Notes under the pieces: generated by a model | Told to the model about the DNA's origin: nothing | What the model saw: the letters and a program-made list of their open reading frames with translations, nothing else | The model's database searches: none | Position numbers and translations under genes: made by a program | Assembly: GCF_014698965.1 (NCBI RefSeq) | Contig: NZ_JACXAE010000050.1 | Coordinates: forward strand, 109,439-141,438 | From: Iningainema tapete BLCC-T55 | GTDB taxonomy: Bacteria; Cyanobacteriota; Cyanobacteriia; Cyanobacteriales; Nostocaceae | Reading direction: 5' to 3' | Length of the DNA stretch: 32,000 nucleotides | Part shown: in pieces, positions 3,077 through 32,000 of the stretch | How the letters are laid out: each line of letters begins with the position of its first letter | Numbering within the stretch: position 1 is the stretch's first letter

Positions 3077-4327
3077 TTATCTCCTTTCTTGCGGAAAAAC
3101 TTTTGACTTTTGACTTTTGACTTTTGACTTTCGCGCAGCGGTGCTGGGCTGATTTAGAGCCGACAAAGATGGGAATACCGCAGATTGGGCATAAGGACCT
3201 GTGCGCAACACTTGAGCTAAAGTATAATTATCTTCGCGCAAACCTTCGTAAAAGAAAAACACTTCTCCATTTATACCACAAGCTCTGTTATACTCAATTA
3301 TCTGCACCAAGTAATCTGGGCTAATTCGATAAGAACCAACCTTCATCAAAATCCCTGGTGCTAACTTAGGCAGCGTCACATCTGTAAACTGCTCGTTGAC
3401 TAACCTATCAACAATATTTTTATAGTCACTGAAGTTGCGACGATATATTTGCGGGTGTATCATATCTACTACTTTGCGCTCTAACCAAGTGGGAGAATCT
3501 TGTAAATATTCCTTAAATGCCCAATCATGTATATTTGGAGCAATTGACACGAGCAAGTGAGAATTTACAGCTTTGACTTCGTGATACAAACGTGCCCAGA
3601 ATTCAGTGAGGATATCAGCACGCCATTGTAACCATTGTGTATCCTTGGGGTTTTGTGGCGGATTTTGCTCAAATTGCTGGCGGTAAAGTTCTATGGTATT
3701 TTGATCGTATCCGCCTTCGGATGGTAGTGCAGGTAAGCGATCGTCTCCTTGAATACCATCAACGTCATAATTTTTCACTACTTCTAGTACTAGATTCAAC
3801 ATGAAATCTTGTACTTCTCTATCCAAAGCATTCAGCCACTCAAAGCCATTTTTCTTCAGCAAATTACCTTGACTATCAAGGGCTGCCCACTCTGGTTTTT
3901 TTGCCAGCAATATTCCACCATTTGAATTGTAAGAACTAGCGAATCCGTATTCAAACCAAGGAATCACCTTTAGCCCTACTCGCCGCGCTGCTTCTACTAC
4001 TTCGGCTATTGGATCTCTTCGTGTATACTGTGGATCTATTTCTATCCCAAATGTTTGCTGCATCACTTGACTAGGATACAGCGTCGCTCCCTTTGTCCAA
4101 ACTACCGGAAAAACAACATTAAATCCTGTCTCGGCAAGGAAATTCATCGCTTGCGCAATATTTTCCTGGGAAAGAAGAACTTGACTATCAGTAGTAGTCA
4201 GCCATACGCCGCGTGTTTCTGTGATTGTCACTTTTAGATATTTGTTGCTAACCGACGATAACGCGCTTGAACTACCATGTAAATTCCATAGGCAACCAAA
4301 CCTAATGATACAATACCTAAAAGCCAA
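3077..4327 (-). CDS. GHL10 / DUF187 (YngK-like) TIM-barrel glycoside-hydrolase-like protein
   Basis: Family-like motifs are RGVWLTT, FNVVFPVVW, VIPWFEYGF and DGIQGDDRLP. The ATG at 4327 overlaps the upstream gene by 94 nt. An in-frame GTG at 4231, 2 nt after the upstream TAA (4234-4236), would give 384 aa and is an equally plausible start. The last ~25 codons are built from repeat DNA. Confidence 0.7.
   Translation of the reverse strand: MAFRYCIIRFGCLWNLHGSSSALSSVSNKYLKVTITETRGVWLTTTDSQVLLSQENIAQAMNFLAETGFNVVFPVVWTKGATLYPSQVMQQTFGIEIDPQYTRRDPIAEVVEAARRVGLKVIPWFEYGFASSYNSNGGILLAKKPEWAALDSQGNLLKKNGFEWLNALDREVQDFMLNLVLEVVKNYDVDGIQGDDRLPALPSEGGYDQNTIELYRQQFEQNPPQNPKDTQWLQWRADILTEFWARLYHEVKAVNSHLLVSIAPNIHDWAFKEYLQDSPTWLERKVVDMIHPQIYRRNFSDYKNIVDRLVNEQFTDVTLPKLAPGILMKVGSYRISPDYLVQIIEYNRACGINGEVFFFYEGLREDNYTLAQVLRTGPYAQSAVFPSLSALNQPSTAARKSKVKSQKSKVFPQERR
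3099..3131. repeat. Heptamer tandem repeat (ACTTTTG) x ~4.7, STRR-like, inside the 3' end of the GHL10 CDS
   Basis: The sequence reads acttttg acttttg acttttg acttttg actttcg directly. On the coding (minus) strand it encodes KSKVKSQKSKV. Confidence 0.9.
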
Positions 4328-6456: not shown

Positions 6457-6915
6457 ATGATCCGCAAGATTTTGACTACTCTAGCTTTAATAACTCCCCT
6501 GTTATTCGCTAGTTCAGTGAGAGCGGAAAATCCGCAACATGTACAAAAGCTGTTATCTACTGGGGAATGTGCTAAGTGCGATTTATCGGGGGCTAACCTT
6601 AAGGGCGCTCACTTAATTGGCGCTGATTTACGCGGAGCTAACTTGCAAGGTGCTAATTTAACTAAGGCAAACCTAGAAGGTGCAGATTTAACTGGTGCTA
6701 ATTTAACTGGTGCTAATTTAACTGCTGCTTTTGCCACTAACGTTGATTTTAAGAAAGCTGATCTTGATAAGGTGAATTTTACTAACGCTAAGATTCATGA
6801 TTCTAACGTATATGGAGCGTCAATGACTGACCTCGTGATCACTAATGCCGATATATTTTACACTGGGATCGGGATTGGTGGCGAAGATGGTGCTACTGTT
6901 CCTGATTGGAAGTAG
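6457..6915 (+). CDS. Secreted pentapeptide-repeat protein
   Basis: Signal peptide MIRKILTTLALITPLLFASSVRA, then consecutive A(D/N)LxG pentads (GANLKGAHLIGADLRGANLQGANLTKANLEGADLTGANLTGANL). Confidence 0.9.
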   Translation: MIRKILTTLALITPLLFASSVRAENPQHVQKLLSTGECAKCDLSGANLKGAHLIGADLRGANLQGANLTKANLEGADLTGANLTGANLTAAFATNVDFKKADLDKVNFTNAKIHDSNVYGASMTDLVITNADIFYTGIGIGGEDGATVPDWK

Positions 6916-17285: not shown

Positions 17286-17307
17286 ACAATCCGCCTAGCG
17301 CCTAGAA

Positions 17308-17357
17308 CCTAGAACTGAAGTTCTAGGCTTATAGCTAAAGTCAGAAGACAGCTGACT
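17308..17357. repeat. 50-nt double-hairpin element, copy A (between the convergent kinase gene and the 123-aa gene)
   Basis: cctagaac tgaa gttctagg cttatagctaa agtcag aagacag ctgact. It matches the reverse complement of 17842-17891 at about 44/50 positions. Confidence 0.85.
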
Positions 17358-17371
17358 AAACTTTTGATTTA

Positions 17372-17743
17372 TTAAAAGGCATCAAAAAAGCCAGTAACTT
17401 CTGTCTTCACCACAAAGCCTTCCAAATTACTAGGTATAGATTTTTGCACCCCAGCATCTCGTAAGTAAACCACAATTACTTCCTGCCCAATTTCATTTCT
17501 TTGGATACCAACGCCAACCACCCCGTCAATAGATAGTAATCTCTGCTCGTGTTTTTGCTTAACACGCTCAATTTGAGATTGAGGATTCAGCGACATAGTA
17601 AAGGGCATAGCTACTTCTTCCACCAGTGGATTCAAATTAGGATTGTCAAAACTGGGATTTTGGTCTATTTCCATTGCCGCAATAGCTCCAGTAAAGTTGA
17701 AAAGTAATAACAGTATTGTAGAAAATATTAATCTCAGCATCAT
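17372..17743 (-). CDS. Small secreted protein, stand-alone paralogue of the N-terminal (pro-domain-like) region of the adjacent protease
   Basis: Signal peptide MMLRLIFSTILLLLFNFTGAIAA. The mature part aligns by eye with residues ~40-160 of the 386-aa protease: EEVAMP/EEAAMP, VGVGI/VGVGL, VIVVYL/INVYVV. Confidence 0.6.
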   Translation of the reverse strand: MMLRLIFSTILLLLFNFTGAIAAMEIDQNPSFDNPNLNPLVEEVAMPFTMSLNPQSQIERVKQKHEQRLLSIDGVVGVGIQRNEIGQEVIVVYLRDAGVQKSIPSNLEGFVVKTEVTGFFDAF

Positions 17744-17841
17744 GGCAAGTCGTCATTCCCCCAACTCCCCGATCCTCAGGAGGCACAAAAGGATCATGTT
17801 AAAAACTCAAGTCCAGCTTCAGCTAACTGCGTAACTCTTGC

Positions 17842-17891
17842 AGTCAGCTGTCTTCTGACTTGAGCTATTAGCCTTGAACTGAAGTTCAAGG
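17842..17891. repeat. 50-nt double-hairpin element, copy B (inverted; between the protease stop and the 123-aa gene)
   Basis: agtcag ctgtctt ctgact tgagctattag ccttgaac tgaa gttcaagg. Confidence 0.85.
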
Positions 17892-17903
17892 CGTAGTCAT
17901 CAT

Positions 17904-19064
17904 TTAGGTATAAAGGCTAACATCCAAAGCCCGCAACACAGTACGCATCTTGTTCGCAATAGTTAAGCCGCCACCACCAGCAAATAGCAAACCAACAGGG
18001 TTACGTTGATTATCCCAAGTCCAGATGGAAGAACCAGAGTCACCGCCAGCACTAAAGTCGCCGCCAAGACCACGTATAATAATCTGATCGCAGAACAAAG
18101 CAACACGACCACTACCGTAGTTCACCCTAACGCTAGCATTGATGTCAGTAATCTGACCTCTAGTTAACTGAGTTGTGCGTCCCGACTTGCCTACAATCAT
18201 GTTTAATTGAGGATCTCTAATCAGGCTGCTAATGCGGAAAAGTTCAGGCTTTCCGCCACTAAGATAGACTAGCTCACGACGAACGCGATCGGGCCAAGCC
18301 CAACCAGTGGCAGCATCAACATAGTTGCATCTGCCATCAAAGTAAATCGGAACGTACCGCTCTAAAATAGCGATGGGGTTTGGACTACAAGCATTCTTGC
18401 CACCATCATAAGGTCCAGGTTGGTAAATATGGTCGCCAAAACTAGCATTATTTGTGTTGGCAAGGACATGATTGTTGCTAAGAATCAAGAGCCGATTGGG
18501 GCGATAAGCCAGACAGCCTAATGTACCTGCTGTAATCTTGAAATGTCCCACAGAGACACCCCCAGGAGCAGGCCTCATACAGAATCGATGCGGTTGTACA
18601 TCGATAATTCCAGATACAACCACATTAATAGGAACATTATCGCTGGCAGCTGCTGAAATACCCATAGAGTCAACGAGAACAGATTTGATCTCATCTACGG
18701 AAGTTTGTTCTACAACATAGACATTGATTGCCGTAGCACCAGGTGTCAAACCTAAACTCGAAGGTTCATCAGGAACACCTAAACCAACACCAACAATGTT
18801 GTTAGCTCCTTGAGGAGCGAATAAGGCTTGTGAGCTTGAAACACCAACTAGTCGAGATAGTTGACTTTCAATCTGTGTTTTAATCTGCACCAGATTTTCA
18901 TCTACACCAGAATATTGATCTGCACTTGGTACAGGCATAGCTGCCTCTTCGGTATTAACATTTTCAGGTACAGCAGCTTCTTCAAACTCAGATTGCATCT
19001 GATACTGATTAGTTGTGCTTTCTGTGGGTATTTCAAATTCTTCGTTTGTTTGTGAGTTTGTCAT
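17904..19064 (-). CDS. Chymotrypsin-fold (S1-like) serine protease with acidic N-terminal extension and no signal peptide
   Basis: Catalytic triad context LILSNNHVLAN (His), CNYVDAATG (Asp) and AGGDSGSSIW (Ser). The N-terminal ~60 aa are acidic and low-complexity. Confidence 0.75.
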   Translation of the reverse strand: MTNSQTNEEFEIPTESTTNQYQMQSEFEEAAVPENVNTEEAAMPVPSADQYSGVDENLVQIKTQIESQLSRLVGVSSSQALFAPQGANNIVGVGLGVPDEPSSLGLTPGATAINVYVVEQTSVDEIKSVLVDSMGISAAASDNVPINVVVSGIIDVQPHRFCMRPAPGGVSVGHFKITAGTLGCLAYRPNRLLILSNNHVLANTNNASFGDHIYQPGPYDGGKNACSPNPIAILERYVPIYFDGRCNYVDAATGWAWPDRVRRELVYLSGGKPELFRISSLIRDPQLNMIVGKSGRTTQLTRGQITDINASVRVNYGSGRVALFCDQIIIRGLGGDFSAGGDSGSSIWTWDNQRNPVGLLFAGGGGLTIANKMRTVLRALDVSLYT

Positions 19065-19281
19065 GATTCACCTTTGTGTAATTGTAATTAAACTCTCTTT
19101 TGACCAGAGACAGGGTTTACTGAACCCATATCTATAGGTTCTTCGAGAAAATAAAAAGCGTCGATACTGATAAGTTAATAAGTTTTATTTGCTGAACTTA
19201 AGGTGAAAATTGTAGAGCAGGTCAGATAACTTCATAAAAACTCATAAAAATTTATTCAGTTGAGATTAAAAACTAGTTCAG

Positions 19282-19335
19282 CTTGGCGCTCTTCTCCTGG
19301 CGGAGACGCTGCGCGAAGGCGTCTTGGCGGTTCAT
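19282..19335. repeat. 54-bp inverted repeat, left copy
   Basis: cttggcgctcttctcctggcggagacgctgcgcgaaggcgtcttggcggttcat is the exact reverse complement of 23664-23717. I checked every base by hand. Confidence 0.95.
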
Positions 19336-19428
19336 AACTCAATTAAAATTGCCATAGCGTGACAATTTCTAAATTTAGGAAATAGAATAAGATATTAGAA
19401 AAATTTTGATAAAAAACCATCCTGAAAC

Positions 19429-21104
19429 ATGGATTTTGAAATAGTTCTACAAGTAACTGATGCCGCAGTTTTTGCCAAGATACGTAGACATTTAAAAGAC
19501 ATCGAAATCGCCATTCTTCGAGGATCTTGGCAAGGTCAAAATTATGATGATATCGCCAAAATTTATGGCTATACTCCCAAATACCTCAAACAATACGTTG
19601 GTCCGAGGTTATGGCATCTACTTTCAGAAGTACTGGGAGAAAAGGTAAGTAAAACAAACTTTCAAGCAGCACTGGAGAGGCGGGCAACAGTGAGGGAGTG
19701 GGGGAGTACAAGAGTGGGGGAATCTAACCCCCCTCTTCCCCCCGAAGTTCGGGGGGATTAAAGGAGGGTACAGATTGGGGAGAGGCAATTGATGTATCTG
19801 TTTTTTTTGGTCGCCATGATGAACTTACTACCCTCACTCAATGGATAATACAAGATCGCTGCCGTTTGGTAACAATATTAGGTATGGGAGGCATTGGTAA
19901 AACTACTCTCGCCGTTAAACTGGCACAACAAATCCAAGGTGAGTTTGAATACCTGATTTGGCGAAGTCTCCGTCATGCCCCACCCTTAGTCTCAATCTTG
20001 ACAGATTTAAACGAATTACTGACAAAAGAGTCACAAACCGTCATACCAGAAACTGTAGATTGTCAAATCTCCTGCCTGCTAAAAATCTTGCGGCGCAAGC
20101 GCTGTTTGCTCATCCTTGATGATTGGGAGACGGTTCTAAGTAGTGGAGACATAGCTGGCTACTATCGCCAAGGCTATGAAGGTTATGGAGAGTTGCTCAA
20201 GCGTGTAGGAGAAGAACCTCACCAAAGCACATTGGTATTCTTGAGTCGGGAAAAACCAATAGAATTAGCGGAACTTGCGGGTGTTACTTTACCTGTGCGT
20301 GTTTTGCTTCTCAAAGGTTTTCCGCGACAAGATGCTATAAAGCTTTTGGCGACAAAAGGTTTTTCTGAGACAGAAAAAGGTTTAGAAGAACTAATTCAAC
20401 TATACCGAGGTCATCCTACGGCGTTAAAAATTGTTGCCACCACAATTAAAGATTTATTTAATGGTAACATCTGCCAATTTATGCAGCAAAGTTCGTTAGT
20501 GATTGGAGATATTTTTTCTCATCTTTTGAACGAACAATTTGCACGTTTATCTTCTTTAGAAGAAAAAATTATGTACTGGTTGGCAATTGAATGTCAGCCA
20601 ATTTCACTTGAGCAATTAAAAACCAACTTAGGGGTTGGGGTATCTAGTTCTGAGTTACTAGCAGTGCTAGAATCTCTTTCCAGGCGATGTTTGATCGATA
20701 AGGCTAGTCTTTTGCTAATGGAACAAGAACAAACCTCGGTTGATAGTACAGCCTTGTTCACCCTCCAACCTGTGATCATGAAATATGTTACTAATTTATT
20801 TGTAGAAAAAATCTGCCAGAATATTATTGAAGTAATTAGAACCAAGTCTATTGAAAAACTAGGGTTACTTAGAACCCATGCCCTCGTTAAGCAGGAATCA
20901 GATGATGTCCAGCAGTGTCGGCAAGTGCGTCTCATACTTACACGGATTCAGGAGCGTCTACATTTGGTTATGGAAAATACCAATGCTATAAAAGAGCAGC
21001 TACAAAATCTGCTTTCACAATTACGTGGGTATCCCGGACGAGGAAATGGATACGCAGAATACAATCTACAAAAGCTGCTGAGAATAACAGAAACAGGGTG
21101 GTAA
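19429..21104 (+). pseudogene. STAND NTPase (HTH-like N-terminal cap + NB-ARC + winged helix, no C-terminal repeat array), split into two frames by a 1-nt offset
   Basis: Frame 1 (19429-19761) encodes ...AILRGSWQGQNYDDIAKIYGYTPKYLKQYVGPRLWHLLSEVLGEKVSKTNFQAALERR. I recognise this as the N-terminal cap recurrent on cyanobacterial NACHT/NB-ARC-WD40/TPR proteins; the database name, from memory, is 'vWA-MoxR associated protein N-terminal domain'. Frame 3 is open from 19728 and reads ...GTDWGEAIDVSVFFGRHDELTTLTQWIIQDRCRLVTILGMGGIGKTTLAVKLAQ. It carries the P-loop, Walker B CLLILDDWE, LVFLSREKP, GxP motif YRGHPTALKIVA and winged helix IMYWLAIECQPISLEQL. It could also be two real CDSs (19429-19761 and 19866-21104) or an assembly error. 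Confidence 0.7.
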
Positions 21105-21109
21105 CCGCC

Positions 21110-22750
21110 ATGATTTGTCCAGGAGTTATACTTCAAAATCGCTTCCGAGTTGTCCGTCAAATTGGTTGCGGTGGTTTTGGTCAGGTGTTTGAGGTGGATG
21201 ATGGCGGTACACTAAAAGTACTCAAAGTTCTCAGGTTAGAGCGTTTTTATAACCCAACAGTGAAAAATAAGGCGATCGCCCTATTCCAGCGAGAAGCCCA
21301 ATTGTTGAGTAAAATTCGGCATCCCGGCATTCCGCTGGTAGAGCCACCTGGATATTTTACTTGGAGTGAAGGTACAAGTGAGCCGTGGCACTGTCTAGTG
21401 ATGGAGAAAATACCAGGTACTAACTTAGAAGATTGGTTGCAAGCCAGAGGTAATCAACCCATCACCACAGAACAAGCCTGTGAATGGTTAACTCAGTTAG
21501 TAAAAATTATTCAAGAATTACATAAACATCAGTATTTTCACAGAGATATTAAACCATCAAACATTATGCTCAGACCAAACGGGCAGCTAGTGCTGATTGA
21601 TTTTGGTGCTGTGCGAGAAGTGACAACAAGCTACTTACAAAAACAAAAAGGTAACGAAACAGGTACTGTACTTATTTCTGCTGGTTACACACCGTCAGAA
21701 CAAGCTGAAGGTTATGCTGTGCCACAATCAGATTTTTTTGCTCTAGGACGTAGCTTTGTCTATTTACTTACTGGTAAATCACCATTGGAGTTTCCCAAAA
21801 ACCCCCAAACAGGAGAATTAATTTGGCGTGACGAGGCAAATGTATCACAGCATTTGGCAGATTTGATCGAGCGCCTCATGGCTCCTTTTCCTGGACAAAG
21901 ACCGCAAAATTGCCCAGAAATATTACAATACCTACAACAAACTCAACCATACTCCCTTTTGTCATTCGCGCAGACGATACCAGGTATTAGCTCTCTGGTA
22001 TCGAAGTGCAATGCCAAAGATACACCACGCCACAACAAAGGTTTTTATTTAGCTTTAGCTAGTTTATTGTTGTTAGGGGTTGGTGGCTTGTGGAATTTTT
22101 CCCCAACTATTGCTTCCCAATTAAATCGACAAGGGTTTGCTGACTATAAAAACAAACGTTTGAATGCTGCTGAGTTTTACTACAAATTAGCTCTAGTTTT
22201 TCAGCCCAAAAATCCCAAAGCTAATTACAACTTGGGAGTGCTTTACGAAGATCGACAAAATATGCCTAAAGCGCGTGCAGCTTACGAGATATCTGTTCAG
22301 CAGGGTTTTGATAAAGCTTATAACAACTTAGCGCGATTGTATATTTTGGACAACAAATCGGCACTCGCAATGCCTCTGCTCAATTCAGGTTTGCCACTTG
22401 CTCAAGAAACCACAACTAAATATGCAATGTTGAAAAACCTTGGTTGGGCGCAAATGAAATTGGGGCGTTACCAAGAGGCGGAAGTTAATCTGAAAAAGGC
22501 GATTGAACTGAGTGGCACGCGCTCTAGTGCTCATTGTCTCCAAGCTATGCTTTTAGAACGTCAAGGTAGTGTTTCTGTCGCTGCTTGGGATAAGTGTGAT
22601 AAATATTACAAGGACAATGATCCAGATGTAAAGCAGTGGATAGCGTCTCGTACCAAGAAAGATGAAAATTCAAAGGATTACTCTGTTGTATCCTCAGTTG
22701 TTAATGAGCGCGAACCGCAAAGACACAAAAAGAAAGGAATAGGGTTATGA
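21110..22750 (+). CDS. Membrane Ser/Thr protein kinase with extracytoplasmic C-terminal TPR/Sel1-like repeats
   Basis: The first ATG after the upstream TAA (21102-21104) is at 21110. Gly-loop IGCGGFGQVFEV, catalytic loop HRDIKPSNIM, IDFG, TM helix FYLALASLLLLGVGGLWNF, then TPR-like repeats (AEFYYKLALVFQPKNPKANYNLGVLYEDRQNMPKARAAYE...). Confidence 0.9.
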   Translation: MICPGVILQNRFRVVRQIGCGGFGQVFEVDDGGTLKVLKVLRLERFYNPTVKNKAIALFQREAQLLSKIRHPGIPLVEPPGYFTWSEGTSEPWHCLVMEKIPGTNLEDWLQARGNQPITTEQACEWLTQLVKIIQELHKHQYFHRDIKPSNIMLRPNGQLVLIDFGAVREVTTSYLQKQKGNETGTVLISAGYTPSEQAEGYAVPQSDFFALGRSFVYLLTGKSPLEFPKNPQTGELIWRDEANVSQHLADLIERLMAPFPGQRPQNCPEILQYLQQTQPYSLLSFAQTIPGISSLVSKCNAKDTPRHNKGFYLALASLLLLGVGGLWNFSPTIASQLNRQGFADYKNKRLNAAEFYYKLALVFQPKNPKANYNLGVLYEDRQNMPKARAAYEISVQQGFDKAYNNLARLYILDNKSALAMPLLNSGLPLAQETTTKYAMLKNLGWAQMKLGRYQEAEVNLKKAIELSGTRSSAHCLQAMLLERQGSVSVAAWDKCDKYYKDNDPDVKQWIASRTKKDENSKDYSVVSSVVNEREPQRHKKKGIGL

Positions 22751-23664
22751 GGTATGCTGTAATGGGTGCTAAGGGGAAACAAAGAAGTATTTTTCTCCTA
22801 TTTTTTGCTGTTTTGTTTTTGCTTTTGATTTTGGTTGTACCTGAGCGAATCGTGGCAGATGGTGGTAGGAGTAATGAGGTACTGGTTGCACAAAATTGTG
22901 GCAATGGTGATACCTCTGTAGCTCGTAGTCCTACTGATATTCCTTATGTGATTAGTCCTCGCAATACTTTATTATTATCTAATCAGCCAAAGCTACGCTG
23001 GAATTCTCTTTTGGATGCTAAAAGTTATACTGTAAGTCTGGTTAAGGGTGACAAAACTGTTTGGGAAACGACGGTAGGTAAAAATGAAGTTGTGTATCCA
23101 GGAAAACCAGTACTTGAGGCTGGGGTAGAGTATTTATTAAGTGTTAAAGCTGATAGTGGTAAGTCATCGGCAGAAGTACAAGAATCTGCACGGGGATTTA
23201 GGTTATTGCCTACTTCTGTTGCTCAAGTTGTTAAGGTGGCGATCGCTCAATTGAATAGTCAACAAATACCACAGAAGGTGAGAGGATTGGCGAGTGCTTA
23301 TATTTATAGTGGTGCTGATTTGAAGTCGGAGGCGATTGAAACGCTTGAGGCAATGGTGGCTGGTGGGGTTAAGGATGTTAGCGTGCATCATCAATTGGGG
23401 AATCTTTACTGGCTTACGGGTGTGAGTTTGCTCTCGGAGATTAATTATAAGGAAGCTGTTAAGTTGGCGAAGTCTTCTCAGGATTTGCCAGAATTGGCAG
23501 AGATTTCTTCTGCTTTGGGTAGGTTGTATGTGGCGATTGGGGAGAAAGGTGAGGCTGTTAAATGGTTTAGTCAAGCACGTGATGTTTATAAGGCTTTGGG
23601 TAATACGCTACGGGTTAGGGAGTTGAATGGGCAGGTGGATTTGATGAAGAGAAGTTTGATTTGA
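22747..23664 (+). CDS. Signal-anchored periplasmic protein: beta-rich N-domain + C-terminal TPR-like repeats
   Basis: Its ATG overlaps the kinase TGA (ATGA at 22747-22750). Hydrophobic anchor IFLLFFAVLFLLLILVV. C-terminal HHQLGNLYWLTG...ALGRLYVAIGEKGEAVKWFSQARDVYKALGN is TPR-like. I recognise no specific family. Confidence 0.7.
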   Translation: MRYAVMGAKGKQRSIFLLFFAVLFLLLILVVPERIVADGGRSNEVLVAQNCGNGDTSVARSPTDIPYVISPRNTLLLSNQPKLRWNSLLDAKSYTVSLVKGDKTVWETTVGKNEVVYPGKPVLEAGVEYLLSVKADSGKSSAEVQESARGFRLLPTSVAQVVKVAIAQLNSQQIPQKVRGLASAYIYSGADLKSEAIETLEAMVAGGVKDVSVHHQLGNLYWLTGVSLLSEINYKEAVKLAKSSQDLPELAEISSALGRLYVAIGEKGEAVKWFSQARDVYKALGNTLRVRELNGQVDLMKRSLI

Positions 23665-23717
23665 TGAACCGCCAAGACGCCTTCGCGCAGCGTCTCCGCC
23701 AGGAGAAGAGCGCCAAG
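23664..23717. repeat. 54-bp inverted repeat, right copy
   Basis: atgaaccgccaagacgccttcgcgcagcgtctccgccaggagaagagcgccaag. It starts on the last base of the stop codon of the 305-aa gene. Confidence 0.95.
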
Positions 23718-23831
23718 GAAAGAGGAAGAGAGGAAGAGAGGGGAGGTGTATCCGGAATGTGGTGATTTGATTTGGTAGCTATGTTTGTGCCAATTAATTT
23801 TGAAATCACTCTCGAAGTGGAGCTTTGTTGT

Positions 23832-24119: not shown

Positions 24120-24262
24120 TGGAAAAAATCGCTCTCATGCGCTTTATGCTATGCTGGTATAACCGTTAGACTTGTAGTCTACAGCATTTCACAGCAGGGT
24201 TGCAGCGGCAGCGCGATTTTTCCCAAAAATTCAAGATATGCAATTTTGAGACGTTATAGCTT

Positions 24263-24457
24263 ATGACTACCAATTTAGTCAAAAATATTACTGATAAGTC
24301 AAAATCTGAGCATCCTTGGATGAAATTTGCGGGTAAGTATAAGGATGACCCACAATTCGATGATATGCTGGCGGATATAGAAGTATATCGACGTGAACGA
24401 GATGCAGAAATGGCAGAATATTACCGACAACTGGACGCTGAGGAAGAGCAAGCGTGA
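24263..24457 (+). CDS. Small acidic antitoxin-like protein (partner of the PIN gene)
   Basis: 64 aa; PWMKFAGKYKDDPQFDDMLADIEVYRRERDAE matches a motif I recall from cyanobacterial antitoxins encoded upstream of VapC genes. Its stop overlaps the downstream GTG (GTGA). Confidence 0.6.
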   Translation: MTTNLVKNITDKSKSEHPWMKFAGKYKDDPQFDDMLADIEVYRRERDAEMAEYYRQLDAEEEQA

Positions 24458-24714
24458 GTTTAGCTTTAGTATTAGCTTACACACAATTGCAAGAAACATT
24501 AGAAGATTTTAAAACTATCAACGTACTCGAATTCAATCCAAATGCTGCTAATTGCTACACAAAATTACTCAAGCAAAAAATTCGTATCGGTACGCAAGAT
24601 TTACGAATTGCGGCAATTGTAACTTCTCTTAATGGCATTTTAGTAACGCGCAACCAACGAGATTTTTTGCCTGTACCTGGCTTGCACTTTGAAGATTGGA
24701 CAATCGAGGATTAG
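24454..24714 (+). pseudogene. VapC-type PIN-domain toxin, N-terminally truncated (C-terminal ~2/3 only)
   Basis: ...IGTQDLRIAAIVTSLNGILVTRNQRDFLPVPGLHFEDW is the canonical VapC C-terminus. The frame is closed by TGA at 24439-24441, so about 40-50 N-terminal residues, including the first catalytic Asp (DTN motif), are missing. Confidence 0.7.
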
Positions 24715-24747
24715 TGCGCTCAAAATGACATTGAATAATTAATTACT

Positions 24748-25008
24748 ATGCAGAAAACTGACACAAACGCACTTAAACCTATCTTGGACTATTTACCAGA
24801 ACGTATTAAACAGGCAATAGAGGAATACTCTCAAGAAACCCAACTTCCCCCGGAATTGGTGATTGAGTTGGCGATAGCTCATTTCTTAGATGTAGACTCT
24901 GTGACTTTTGACGATTGTCGGATTGAGTCACCAGGTATTCTTAGAGAACAGAATAAAATCCTCAAGATTCAGTTAGCAGCTATCGAGGGTGCTCGCTCAA
25001 GTACGTAG
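24748..25008 (+). CDS. Conserved small protein, copy 1 (86 aa; possibly RHH/DUF2811-like)
   Basis: It is a paralogue of 31725-32000. Most nucleotide differences between the copies are synonymous, so both copies appear to be under purifying selection. LPPELVIELAIAHFL resembles RHH/antitoxin-like helices, but this assignment is weak. Confidence 0.7.
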   Translation: MQKTDTNALKPILDYLPERIKQAIEEYSQETQLPPELVIELAIAHFLDVDSVTFDDCRIESPGILREQNKILKIQLAAIEGARSST

Positions 25009-31081: not shown

Positions 31082-31251
31082 CCCGTCCTGGTTCAAGGGC
31101 GAGCTAGAAGCAGCCTCAAGAACTACAATCGCTTTCATGCTCTTCTATGCTATAGTAGTAAAGCTGTTATGCTTGTATTCTAGCAGGGGTGCAGGAAAAG
31201 CGCGGTTTTTACTCAAAATCAAAGATATGTAACCTTTAGGCGCGACAGCTT

Positions 31252-31281
31252 ATGACTACTAATTTAGTAAAAAATAGCTGA
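31252..31281 (+). pseudogene. Remnant of the antitoxin-like gene (first 8 codons, then stop)
   Basis: atgactactaatttagtaaaaaatagctga translates to MTTNLVKNS*, compared with MTTNLVKNITDKS... in copy 1. Confidence 0.7.
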
Positions 31282-31347
31282 TTATACTGGGTTATGCTTA
31301 TGAAGATCGTTACCCACTCGTAGCCCCTAAACTGAAAAAATAGGAGC

Positions 31348-31719
31348 ATGACCGAAACTGAAATTAGGGAGGAAGCCGACAAGATTCTCGAAATCCTCAT
31401 TTCAAAGCCATTTGCTGAATGCTTCCCTTTAACAAGAGATTTTAAGCAGTTGCCCACATCCCCAGGTATATATGCCCTTAAATCTAGGGATGAGAAAATT
31501 CTGTACATTGGCAAATCAGGTGGGATAAGAGCGCGATTCCGAAGTGGGCATAATGCCTTAACCCAGGCTTTTTTTGATAGATTAGATCCAACAGATTTAA
31601 GAATTGCGGTTTTTGTTGTAACAATTCAACGGGTAAGGTTGCTATCAGAATTAGAATCATTAATTCTCCAAAAAATTGATAAACCAAGATATAACAGTAG
31701 AATCCCATCGAGAGAGTAA
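31348..31719 (+). CDS. Stand-alone GIY-YIG nuclease-domain protein (123 aa)
   Basis: GIYALKSRDEKILYIGKS (GIY-N10-YIG), a following Arg (IRARFRSGH), and a Glu/Asn region ELESLILQKIDKPRYNSR. aggag lies 2 nt upstream of the ATG. The stop is 5 nt before the next gene. Confidence 0.75.
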   Translation: MTETEIREEADKILEILISKPFAECFPLTRDFKQLPTSPGIYALKSRDEKILYIGKSGGIRARFRSGHNALTQAFFDRLDPTDLRIAVFVVTIQRVRLLSELESLILQKIDKPRYNSRIPSRE

Positions 31720-31724
31720 GTACT

Positions 31725-32000
31725 ATGCAGAAAACTGACACAAACGCACTTAAAAATATCTTGGACTATTTACCAGAACGTATTAAGCTGGCAATAGAGG
31801 AATACTCTAAAGAAACTCAACTCCCCCCTGAATTGGTGATTGAGTTGGCGATCGCTCACTTCTTAGATGTGGACTCGGTGACTTTTGACGATTGCCAGAT
31901 TGAGTCACCAGGAATACTTAGAGAACAGAATAAAATCCTCAAGATTCAGTTAGCAGCTATTGAGGGCGAGCGCTCAAAAACTCAAGCAATGCCGAGGTAA
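31725..32000 (+). CDS. Conserved small protein, copy 2 (91 aa)
   Basis: It is a paralogue of 24748-25008, with 4 aa differences in the first 78 residues. The TAA stop falls exactly at the window end. Confidence 0.7.
   Translation: MQKTDTNALKNILDYLPERIKLAIEEYSKETQLPPELVIELAIAHFLDVDSVTFDDCQIESPGILREQNKILKIQLAAIEGERSKTQAMPR

Follow-up and report, generated by a model that had tools for sequence, protein, structure and literature searches.

The small dispersed repeats (SDRs) of Nostoc punctiforme and relatives, SDR1-8, which stem from the survey of three genomes by Elhai, Kato, Cousins, Lindblad and Costa (Genome Res 2008), are reportedly 21–27 nt long, restricted to the heterocystous subgroup of cyanobacteria, found in heptamer arrays or mini-transposons, nested, endowed with a shared hairpin and recently mobile. 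Here we describe a repeat that resembles them in a stretch of 32,000 nucleotides from Iningainema tapete BLCC-T55 (contig NZ_JACXAE010000050.1, positions 109,439 to 141,438), referred to as the window in this text. A perfect 54-nt inverted repeat in this window brackets three genes, which code for a STAND NTPase, a Ser/Thr kinase with tetratricopeptide repeats (TPR) and a 305-aa TPR protein. Each arm is composed of a 30-nt host sequence and a 24-nt hairpin module set into it. We consider it likely that each arm is a copy of a small dispersed repeat found in Nostocales and that their bracketing of the three genes is incidental.

The module shares a number of properties with the SDRs. It measures 24–27 nt, is found in heterocystous cyanobacteria only and occupies many unrelated contexts. 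Both arrays of short tandem repeats and elements that resemble mini-transposons harbour it, and its insertions can be nested or in tandem. Its hairpin appears to be conserved, with changes in the two arms that seem coordinated. Since closely related strains differ in whether they have it, it may have moved recently. This likeness concerns general properties; judged by it, the module appears to be a very small dispersed repeat of the SDR type that behaves independently of the host. The 54-mer is a further instance of an already known sort of cyanobacterial mini-repeat. Unlike the surveyed SDRs, it comes from a source outside the three original genomes (Iningainema, presumably a member of the Scytonemataceae), and its two copies are inverted and 4.3 kb apart.

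Three other kinds of repeat are close enough for comparison. With its three CGCCAAG-type units and a period of 8–9 nt, the host is similar to the STRR and other heptameric short tandem repeats of the Nostocales, and the window also holds a TTTTGAC array that is followed by a related module. However, the host has only three units, is itself dispersed with a purine-rich tail and serves as an insertion context. Like miniature inverted-repeat transposable elements (MITEs, for example the cyanobacterial Nezha type), the composite is small, non-coding, dispersed and intergenic, and elsewhere it is found inside elements of 100–130 nt. The 54-mer is shorter than typical MITEs, though, and lacks terminal inverted repeats of its own, a target-site duplication and, in the window, a partner transposase. 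The RAYT-mobilised REP/REPIN sequences are likewise short, hairpin-forming extragenic repeats that sometimes occur as inverted doublets. Passages of PMC5861425 and PMC3116915 cite the SDR work of Elhai et al. (2008), and a passage of the latter names SDRs as possibly analogous to REP/REPIN. The present repeat differs in that no RAYT (IS200/IS605-like) gene is found in the window, that the copies lie 4.3 kb apart and form no doublet, and that the module inserts inside repeats.

A perfect inverted repeat built in two layers

The arms of the repeat (19282-19335 and 23664-23717) are 54 nt long, 100% complementary and separated by a spacer of 4328 nt, as found both by a repeat search of the window and by direct reading. 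As read on the right copy, the 54-mer is ATGAACCGCCAAGACGCCTTCGCGCAGCGTCTCCGCCAGGAGAAGAGCGCCAAG. The runner-up inverted pairs in the window are 50 nt long at 88% and then at most 35 nt at about 71–90%. The 19-nt core GACGCCTTCGCGCAGCGTC occurs twice in the window (0.01 occurrences expected), both times in the arms, and the 54-nt match between them is far above chance. Counted from the sequence, the 54-mer has a G+C content of about 65%, compared with a window mean of about 40%. Its left copy is located between the start of the protease gene (19064, minus strand) and that of the STAND gene (19429, plus strand). The right copy shares its first base with the final A of the TGA (23662-23664) that ends the open reading frame (ORF) of the 305-aa protein. 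The 54-mer contains a hairpin of the form AGACGC-N9-GCGTCT. Exact complementarity, the placement of either copy and the internal hairpin had all been noted in the first-pass annotation of the window, and our results agree with it on each of these points.

The 54-mer consists of 30 nt of host with CGCCAAG-type tandem units (ATGAACCGCCAAGACGCC and AAGAGCGCCAAG), interrupted at CGCC^AAG by the 24-nt hairpin module TTCGCGCAGCGTCTCCGCCAGGAG. We regard the 54-mer as two-layered because the module also sits without host in unrelated flanks, and because empty hosts occur. Such empty hosts were seen in the loci L022 (with an identical AACCGCCAAGACGCCAAGAGCGCCAAG), L016 and L051. The first layer is a host of about 30 nt made of the units ATGAACCGCC AAGACGCC AAGAGCGCC AAG, mostly with a purine-rich tail behind it. 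The second is a module of 24–27 nt, TTCGCGCAGCG-TCTCC-GCCA-GGAGA-AG, with a conserved mini-hairpin, placed between the CGCC and the AAG of one host unit. The aligned copies share the unit (N)GAACCGCCAAG(A)ACGCC-TTCGCGCAGCGTCTC-loop-GAGAAG-(A)ACGCCAAG, and its ends, (N)GAACCGCCAAG...GCCAAG, are those of the 54-mer in the window. Across 55 tabulated modules the length is 21–25 nt plus the shared AAG; compared with an empty allele, the net insert is 24 nt. All ten of ten loop variants have a perfect stem, whose arms lengthen jointly by C and G (TCTC/GAGA, TCTCC/GGAGA, TCTCCC/GGGAGA); the TCTC/GAGA core is invariant among these variants and hence uninformative on compensatory change.

Two further sites in the window, at about 1914 and 3128, had been listed as shorter, degenerate relatives of the repeat. 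This was borne out in part. The 11-mer TTCGCGCAGCG, which forms the 5' half of the module, is found with at most one mismatch at four sites in the window (0.22 expected), and the sites at 1913-1932 and 3130-3150 have the 14 nt CGCGCAGCGGTGCT in common. The second of them is directly preceded by the heptamer array, TTTTGAC x4 at about 3108-3135, after which the sequence continues as TTCGCGCAGCGGTGCT... However, a family hidden Markov model (HMM) built from 44 copies matched only the two 54-mers in the window significantly (E about 1e-14), while 3130-3140 scored E=1.9 and the site at 1914 was not reported. The two sites are thus probably a related small repeat with a common 5' half, not decayed 54-mers. 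A search for CGCGCAGCGGTGCT in all 66 fetched loci gave no match, and the pair may be a variant specific to the Iningainema genome.

A family dispersed in the Nostocales

Membership of the 54-mer in a dispersed family, as the first-pass annotation had supposed, is observed in three collections. Among 185,579 species representatives (one genome per species), the pattern CAAG(N)ACGCCTTCGCGCAGCGTCTC occurs at 42 loci, with up to five in one genome. All loci with a named taxon belong to the Nostocales (Nostoc, Scytonema, Stigonema, Calothrix, Tolypothrix, Cylindrospermum, Halotia, Hassallia and Amazonocrinis), and one of the 42 records bears no label other than 'uncultured bacterium'. This Nostocales-only distribution is subject to the limit that copies which have diverged escape a scan for an exact pattern. 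A blastn search of the 54-mer against 72,556 plasmids matched Nostoc plasmids only (nine), mostly in unannotated stretches. The pattern GCGCAGCGTCTCCGCCAGGAGAAG, taken from the inner part, yielded eight metagenome loci, at least six of them with flanks unlike the host. Within the collection of papers searched, a literal search for the core sequence returned only unrelated 10-mer matches.

The contexts of these copies are diverse. In L055, L056, L058, L059, L060 and L062 the flanks of the module are wholly different, in L057 a further insertion is nested within the module, and double insertions are present in L024 and L027. In many genomes the composite occupies the middle of a larger element whose ends are inverted, for example AGGACTTACGCA...TGCGTAAGTCCT or TATAGCAATCCTAAAT...ATTTAGGACTGCTATA; these larger elements measure 100–130 nt and carry terminal inverted repeats.

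The family alignment also bears on a coding explanation, according to which the 54-mer would be the 5' end of a small gene (ATG AAC CGC ..., giving MNRQDAFAQRLRQEKSAK, similar to the N-terminus of an XRE-type helix-turn-helix protein) that has been duplicated or truncated at both sites. Both copies in the window do begin with ATG, and the right one overlaps the upstream stop codon as TGATG. The frames run on for only 2 and 15 codons, in unrelated sequence, and some copies of the family are nested inside other repeats. The idea was given up since the family does not conserve the ATG, whose position is taken by ACG, TTG, TCG, GTG or ATG, and since loop indels of 1–4 nt break the frame. We consider such an origin extremely improbable.

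Filled, empty and differently filled sites in a related strain

A sister strain could be compared in Logan assemblies of three sequencing runs (SRR19742217, SRR30635598 and SRR30635601; contigs L046-L050). L046 (4383 bp) covers the whole three-gene segment with 97.6% identity to the window, L047 covers part of it with 96.3% identity, and L048-L050 are contigs of the protease region with 99.4% identity. The same 30-nt host is present at both ends of the segment, as seen at the ends of these contigs. The right copy of the sister strain reads ATGAACCGCCAAGACGCCAAGAGCGCCAA, which is the host without the 24-nt TTCGCGCAGCGTCTCCGCCAGGAG; a global alignment places a clean 24-nt gap at 23682-23705. On the minus strand, its left copy reads ATGAACCGCC / TTCTCTTCGAGAGGCTTCGCCAACGCG...TCTCGAAGAGAAG / ACGCCAAGAGCGCCAAG / CTGAAC. 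Here the insert sits at the first CGCC^AAG and is another, longer double module of palindromic sequence; the same composite is found in L017 and L026. This filled/empty polymorphism is a direct observation.

Because the same hosts are located at both ends in both strains, the inverted 30-nt hosts appear to be older than the split of the window strain from the sister strain. Judging from the aligned sites, the modules in the two hosts would have changed at least three times since then. That the perfect identity of the arms points to a recent event had been suggested before, and the 97.6%-identical strain speaks for it: since its right copy is empty and its left copy differently filled, the 54-nt identity reflects recent turnover of small repeats.

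The same comparison helps to judge whether the repeat could be a functional cis-element at both ends of an operon, such as a protein-binding site, a hairpin for RNA stability or termination, or the source of a small RNA, instead of selfish or neutral repeat DNA. The conserved hairpin with its paired stem extensions, the many copies in unannotated stretches beside gene ends and the right copy that abuts a stop codon would all fit such a function. However, the folding energy of the 54-mer is ordinary for its composition (z = -1.3 and -0.6), and a search of the window with Rfam at gathering thresholds gave no match. Nearly identical strains differ in having or lacking the module, which does not occur at orthologous loci, and its contexts are heterogeneous, some of them nested in other repeats. 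A terminator was considered separately and dropped, as neither copy has a hairpin followed by a run of T. Taken together, a cis-regulatory role seems quite improbable.

Further differences between the two strains were noted. At 23649-23660, 12 nt of the window (GAGAAGTTTGAT) have no counterpart in the sister strain; this insertion, a partial duplicate of the adjoining TTGATTTGATGAA, lengthens the C-terminus of the 305-aa protein (...DLMKRSLI* vs ...DLMK* in the sister strain). Moreover, 41 of 94 mismatches to the sister strain fall within the 500 nt of 22282-22782, where the kinase gene ends with its TPR part and the 305-aa gene starts; identity is about 99.4% in the STAND and protease regions. 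This uneven divergence suggests different histories or different selection.

Gene order in Scytonema and Brasilonema

The three bracketed genes had been proposed to form a unit that may have been captured or mobilised between the repeats. Synteny was observed in Scytonema sp. PRP1 (L051) and in two Brasilonema records (L053, L054). They have the gene order (petH)-prk-metK-histidine kinase-Ser/Thr kinase/TPR-TPR (314 aa)-small ORF-CHAT/TPR, and from prk onward their genes follow the order and the strand of those in the window (identities in Table 1). orf123, the protease gene, the STAND gene, a vapBC remnant and orf86 are not at this locus in any of the three records, and the family HMM gave no significant match in them, with nothing at the two sites that carry the repeat in the window. 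A conserved motif upstream of the small ORF, ATCCGGAATG.TGTGATTT, marks the point at about 23749, just past the repeat and its purine tail, from which the sequence is ancestral again. What Iningainema has in addition between the histidine kinase and the kinase gene is a block at about 17286-21109, with the STAND gene on the plus strand and orf123 and the protease gene on the minus strand. Within this block the left repeat has a central position and is not at the edge.

As they are collinear, on the same strand and between the same histidine kinase and CHAT genes in the relatives, the kinase/TPR gene and the 305-aa gene are ancestral residents, in place as well as in orientation. The only additions are the STAND gene and, outside the repeat, the protease pair. 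This does not fit with a delimited three-gene unit: two of its three genes are at their ancestral place, and the variable block straddles the left repeat. Scytonema sp. PRP1 has an empty host (AAACCGCCAAGACGCCAAGTACGCCAAG plus purine tail) at about 7790-7820 of L051 (minus strand), between the kinase and the 314-aa TPR gene; it is in the same neighbourhood, at a spot unlike that of either window copy.

It could still be argued that the repeats are the ends of a MITE-flanked cassette, similar to a composite transposon, that moves the STAND, kinase and TPR genes as one unit of 4.4 kb. The perfect inverted pair bounds three co-oriented genes exactly, and the family is tied to MITE-like elements in other genomes. 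L046 also covers exactly this unit, although that would be expected for any segment bounded by repeats. We reject the cassette because of the synteny, which places the kinase/TPR and 305-aa genes in Scytonema and Brasilonema without STAND gene or repeats at these sites, because of the straddled left repeat, and because neither a flanking direct repeat nor, in the 32-kb window, a transposase or recombinase was found. Outside the pair, the flanks compared for a target-site duplication (...CTAGTTCAG and GAAAGAGGA...; next to the arms ...TAGTTCAG on the left vs GAAAGAGG... on the right) share no direct repeat. Of those ORFs in the window that were compared with Pfam or NCBIfam, none was found to code for a transposase or recombinase, in agreement with the first-pass annotation. 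Beyond the interrupted host, the two ends are moreover unlike each other in the 97.6%-identical strain. A mobile cassette is therefore a very improbable explanation.

Another possibility is that the 54-bp repeats serve as substrates for a RecA-dependent inversion of the 4.3-kb segment, either as a switch similar to phase variation or as a structural polymorphism. The orientation of the arms would lead to inversion, not deletion, and 54 bp of perfect identity exceed the minimal length that is usually quoted for homologous recombination in bacteria. However, the segment is assembled in its ancestral orientation, and no invertase or recombinase gene is found in the window. Upstream of the STAND gene, the best promoter-like site (19359-19388; its score is not above chance) is located inside the segment. 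An inversion would switch nothing obvious, because this site would move together with the genes. The sister strain has the identical stretch in two pieces of about 10 + 20 nt, which does not look like a switch that has been conserved. We regard such an inversion, as a switch or as a polymorphism, as unlikely.

A proposed history of the repeat pair

We infer the order of events and the copying mechanism as follows. In the Iningainema lineage, two hosts would have ended up at two intergenic positions, inverted relative to each other: one upstream of the recently added STAND gene, the other immediately downstream of the 305-aa TPR gene, which is ancestral. Both hosts of the window strain would then have gained the same 24-nt module at the same CGCC^AAG, resulting in 54 nt of perfect identity. 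This could have happened by two targeted insertions, or by one insertion followed by short-patch conversion between the hosts. The repeats would neither have brought the genes in nor define a transposable unit.

Several points weigh against this reading of the pair as two coincident copies of a dispersed repeat. If the insertions were independent, identical inserts at the same position of both copies would be a coincidence, and the conversion route needs recombination on 18 + 12 nt of flanking homology. The species-representative loci were picked by a pattern that takes in the host, so the preference for insertion at CGCC^AAG is inflated by ascertainment. The genome of BLCC-T55 is not among the species-representative matches, and its copies were counted within the window only. 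As to the sister strain, the junctions were read from short de Bruijn contigs whose ends fall within the repeats, the central part of the left insert (CAGCG) was deduced and not observed, and L046 was linked to L048 by the matching host halves alone.

The module may even be mobile today. In that case it would be copied precisely into the CGCC^AAG of identical hosts, and a 54-bp pair created in this way might then flip the segment. This idea, which we regard as rather doubtful, is based on the at least three insertion or loss events at two 30-nt sites between strains that differ by 0.6–2.4%. If true, it would mean structural heterogeneity in a locus for signalling or conflict, and it would offer a natural filled/empty system for the study of how some of the smallest known mobile elements move.

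Genes and other repeats at the locus

The features discussed above are listed in Table 1. The window STAND gene is split into ORFs of 110 and 412 aa by a 1-nt deletion at about 19734, while the gene in L046 is intact (558 aa); the split gene is either a pseudogene or the product of a sequencing error. The two-gene module of orf123 and protease is found elsewhere, in other organisms and contexts, without any STAND gene. By eye, the remaining ORFs of the window are housekeeping genes (petH, prk, metK, homoserine dehydrogenase and a histidine kinase), and a small GIY-YIG nuclease gene is located at 31348-31719.

Table 1. Repeats and genes of the locus, with identities to the Scytonema and Brasilonema records
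Feature	Position	Strand	tblastn identity to window	Remarks
Short relative of module, 5' half (TTCGCGCAGCG) only	3130..3150	+		Partner at 1913-1932
prk			94%	
metK			87-90%	
Histidine kinase			71-73%	
orf123	17372-17743	-		123 aa; two-gene module with protease
Protease-like gene, 386 aa	17904..19064	-		Outside repeat pair; not at syntenic locus of relatives
Left copy, 54-nt composite repeat	19282..19335	-		Minus-strand order ATGAACCGCCAAGACGCC-TTCGCGCAGCGTCTCCGCCAGGAG-AAGAGCGCCAAG; nhmmer E=2.9e-14
24-nt SDR-like hairpin module, left copy	19294..19317	-		Placed at second CGCC^AAG of host
STAND NTPase gene (HTH_VMAP-M9 + NB-ARC/NACHT)	19429..21104	+		Not at syntenic locus in Scytonema, Brasilonema
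Ser/Thr kinase-TPR gene, 546 aa	21110..22750	+	53-59%	Ancestral resident; collinear in Scytonema, Brasilonema
305-aa TPR gene (TPR305; WP_190828880.1 / MBD2773295.1, Iningainema tapete BLCC-T55)	22747..23664	+	52-54%	Ancestral resident; collinear
Right copy, 54-nt composite repeat	23664..23717	+		Begins on last base of TGA of 305-aa gene; nhmmer E=1.7e-14
24-nt SDR-like module TTCGCGCAGCGTCTCCGCCAGGAG, right copy	23682..23705	+		Filled site vs empty site in related strain (L046, L047)
Purine-rich tail (GAAAGAGGAAGAGAGGAAGAGAGGGGAGG...)	23718..23748	+		Similar tail behind host element in other genomes
orf115			43-44%	
CHAT			63-65%	

Other repeats of the window were also noted. The 50-nt inverted pair at 88% (17308-17357 / 17842-17891) surrounds the 123-aa gene beside the protease gene, and each of its arms has palindromes of its own, for example CCTAGAACTGAAGTTCTAGG. 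Direct repeats about 7 kb apart (24193-25000 / 31182-31977; 95 nt at 78% and 277 nt at 90%) flank the CHAT/TPR gene and a gene for a MauG-like di-haem peroxidase; the first copy contains a vapB-like gene and a truncated vapC, the second the GIY-YIG nuclease gene. At 6457-6915, the gene of a pentapeptide-repeat protein appears as an ordinary family of direct repeats with a 15-nt period.

Conclusions

These results remove a tempting reading of the locus, namely that of a defence-like STAND/kinase/TPR cassette mobilised between MITEs; the gene order is mostly ancestral. What they provide is a clean natural polymorphism, in which identical hosts in two close strains are empty, filled with 24 nt or differently filled. 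To our knowledge, the mechanism by which SDR-type mini-repeats spread is still unknown, and a filled/empty polymorphism is evidence of the sort needed to study it. For the annotation of Nostocales genomes the case calls for caution, since a perfect inverted repeat between their genes is often just a pair of abundant small repeats that happen to coincide.

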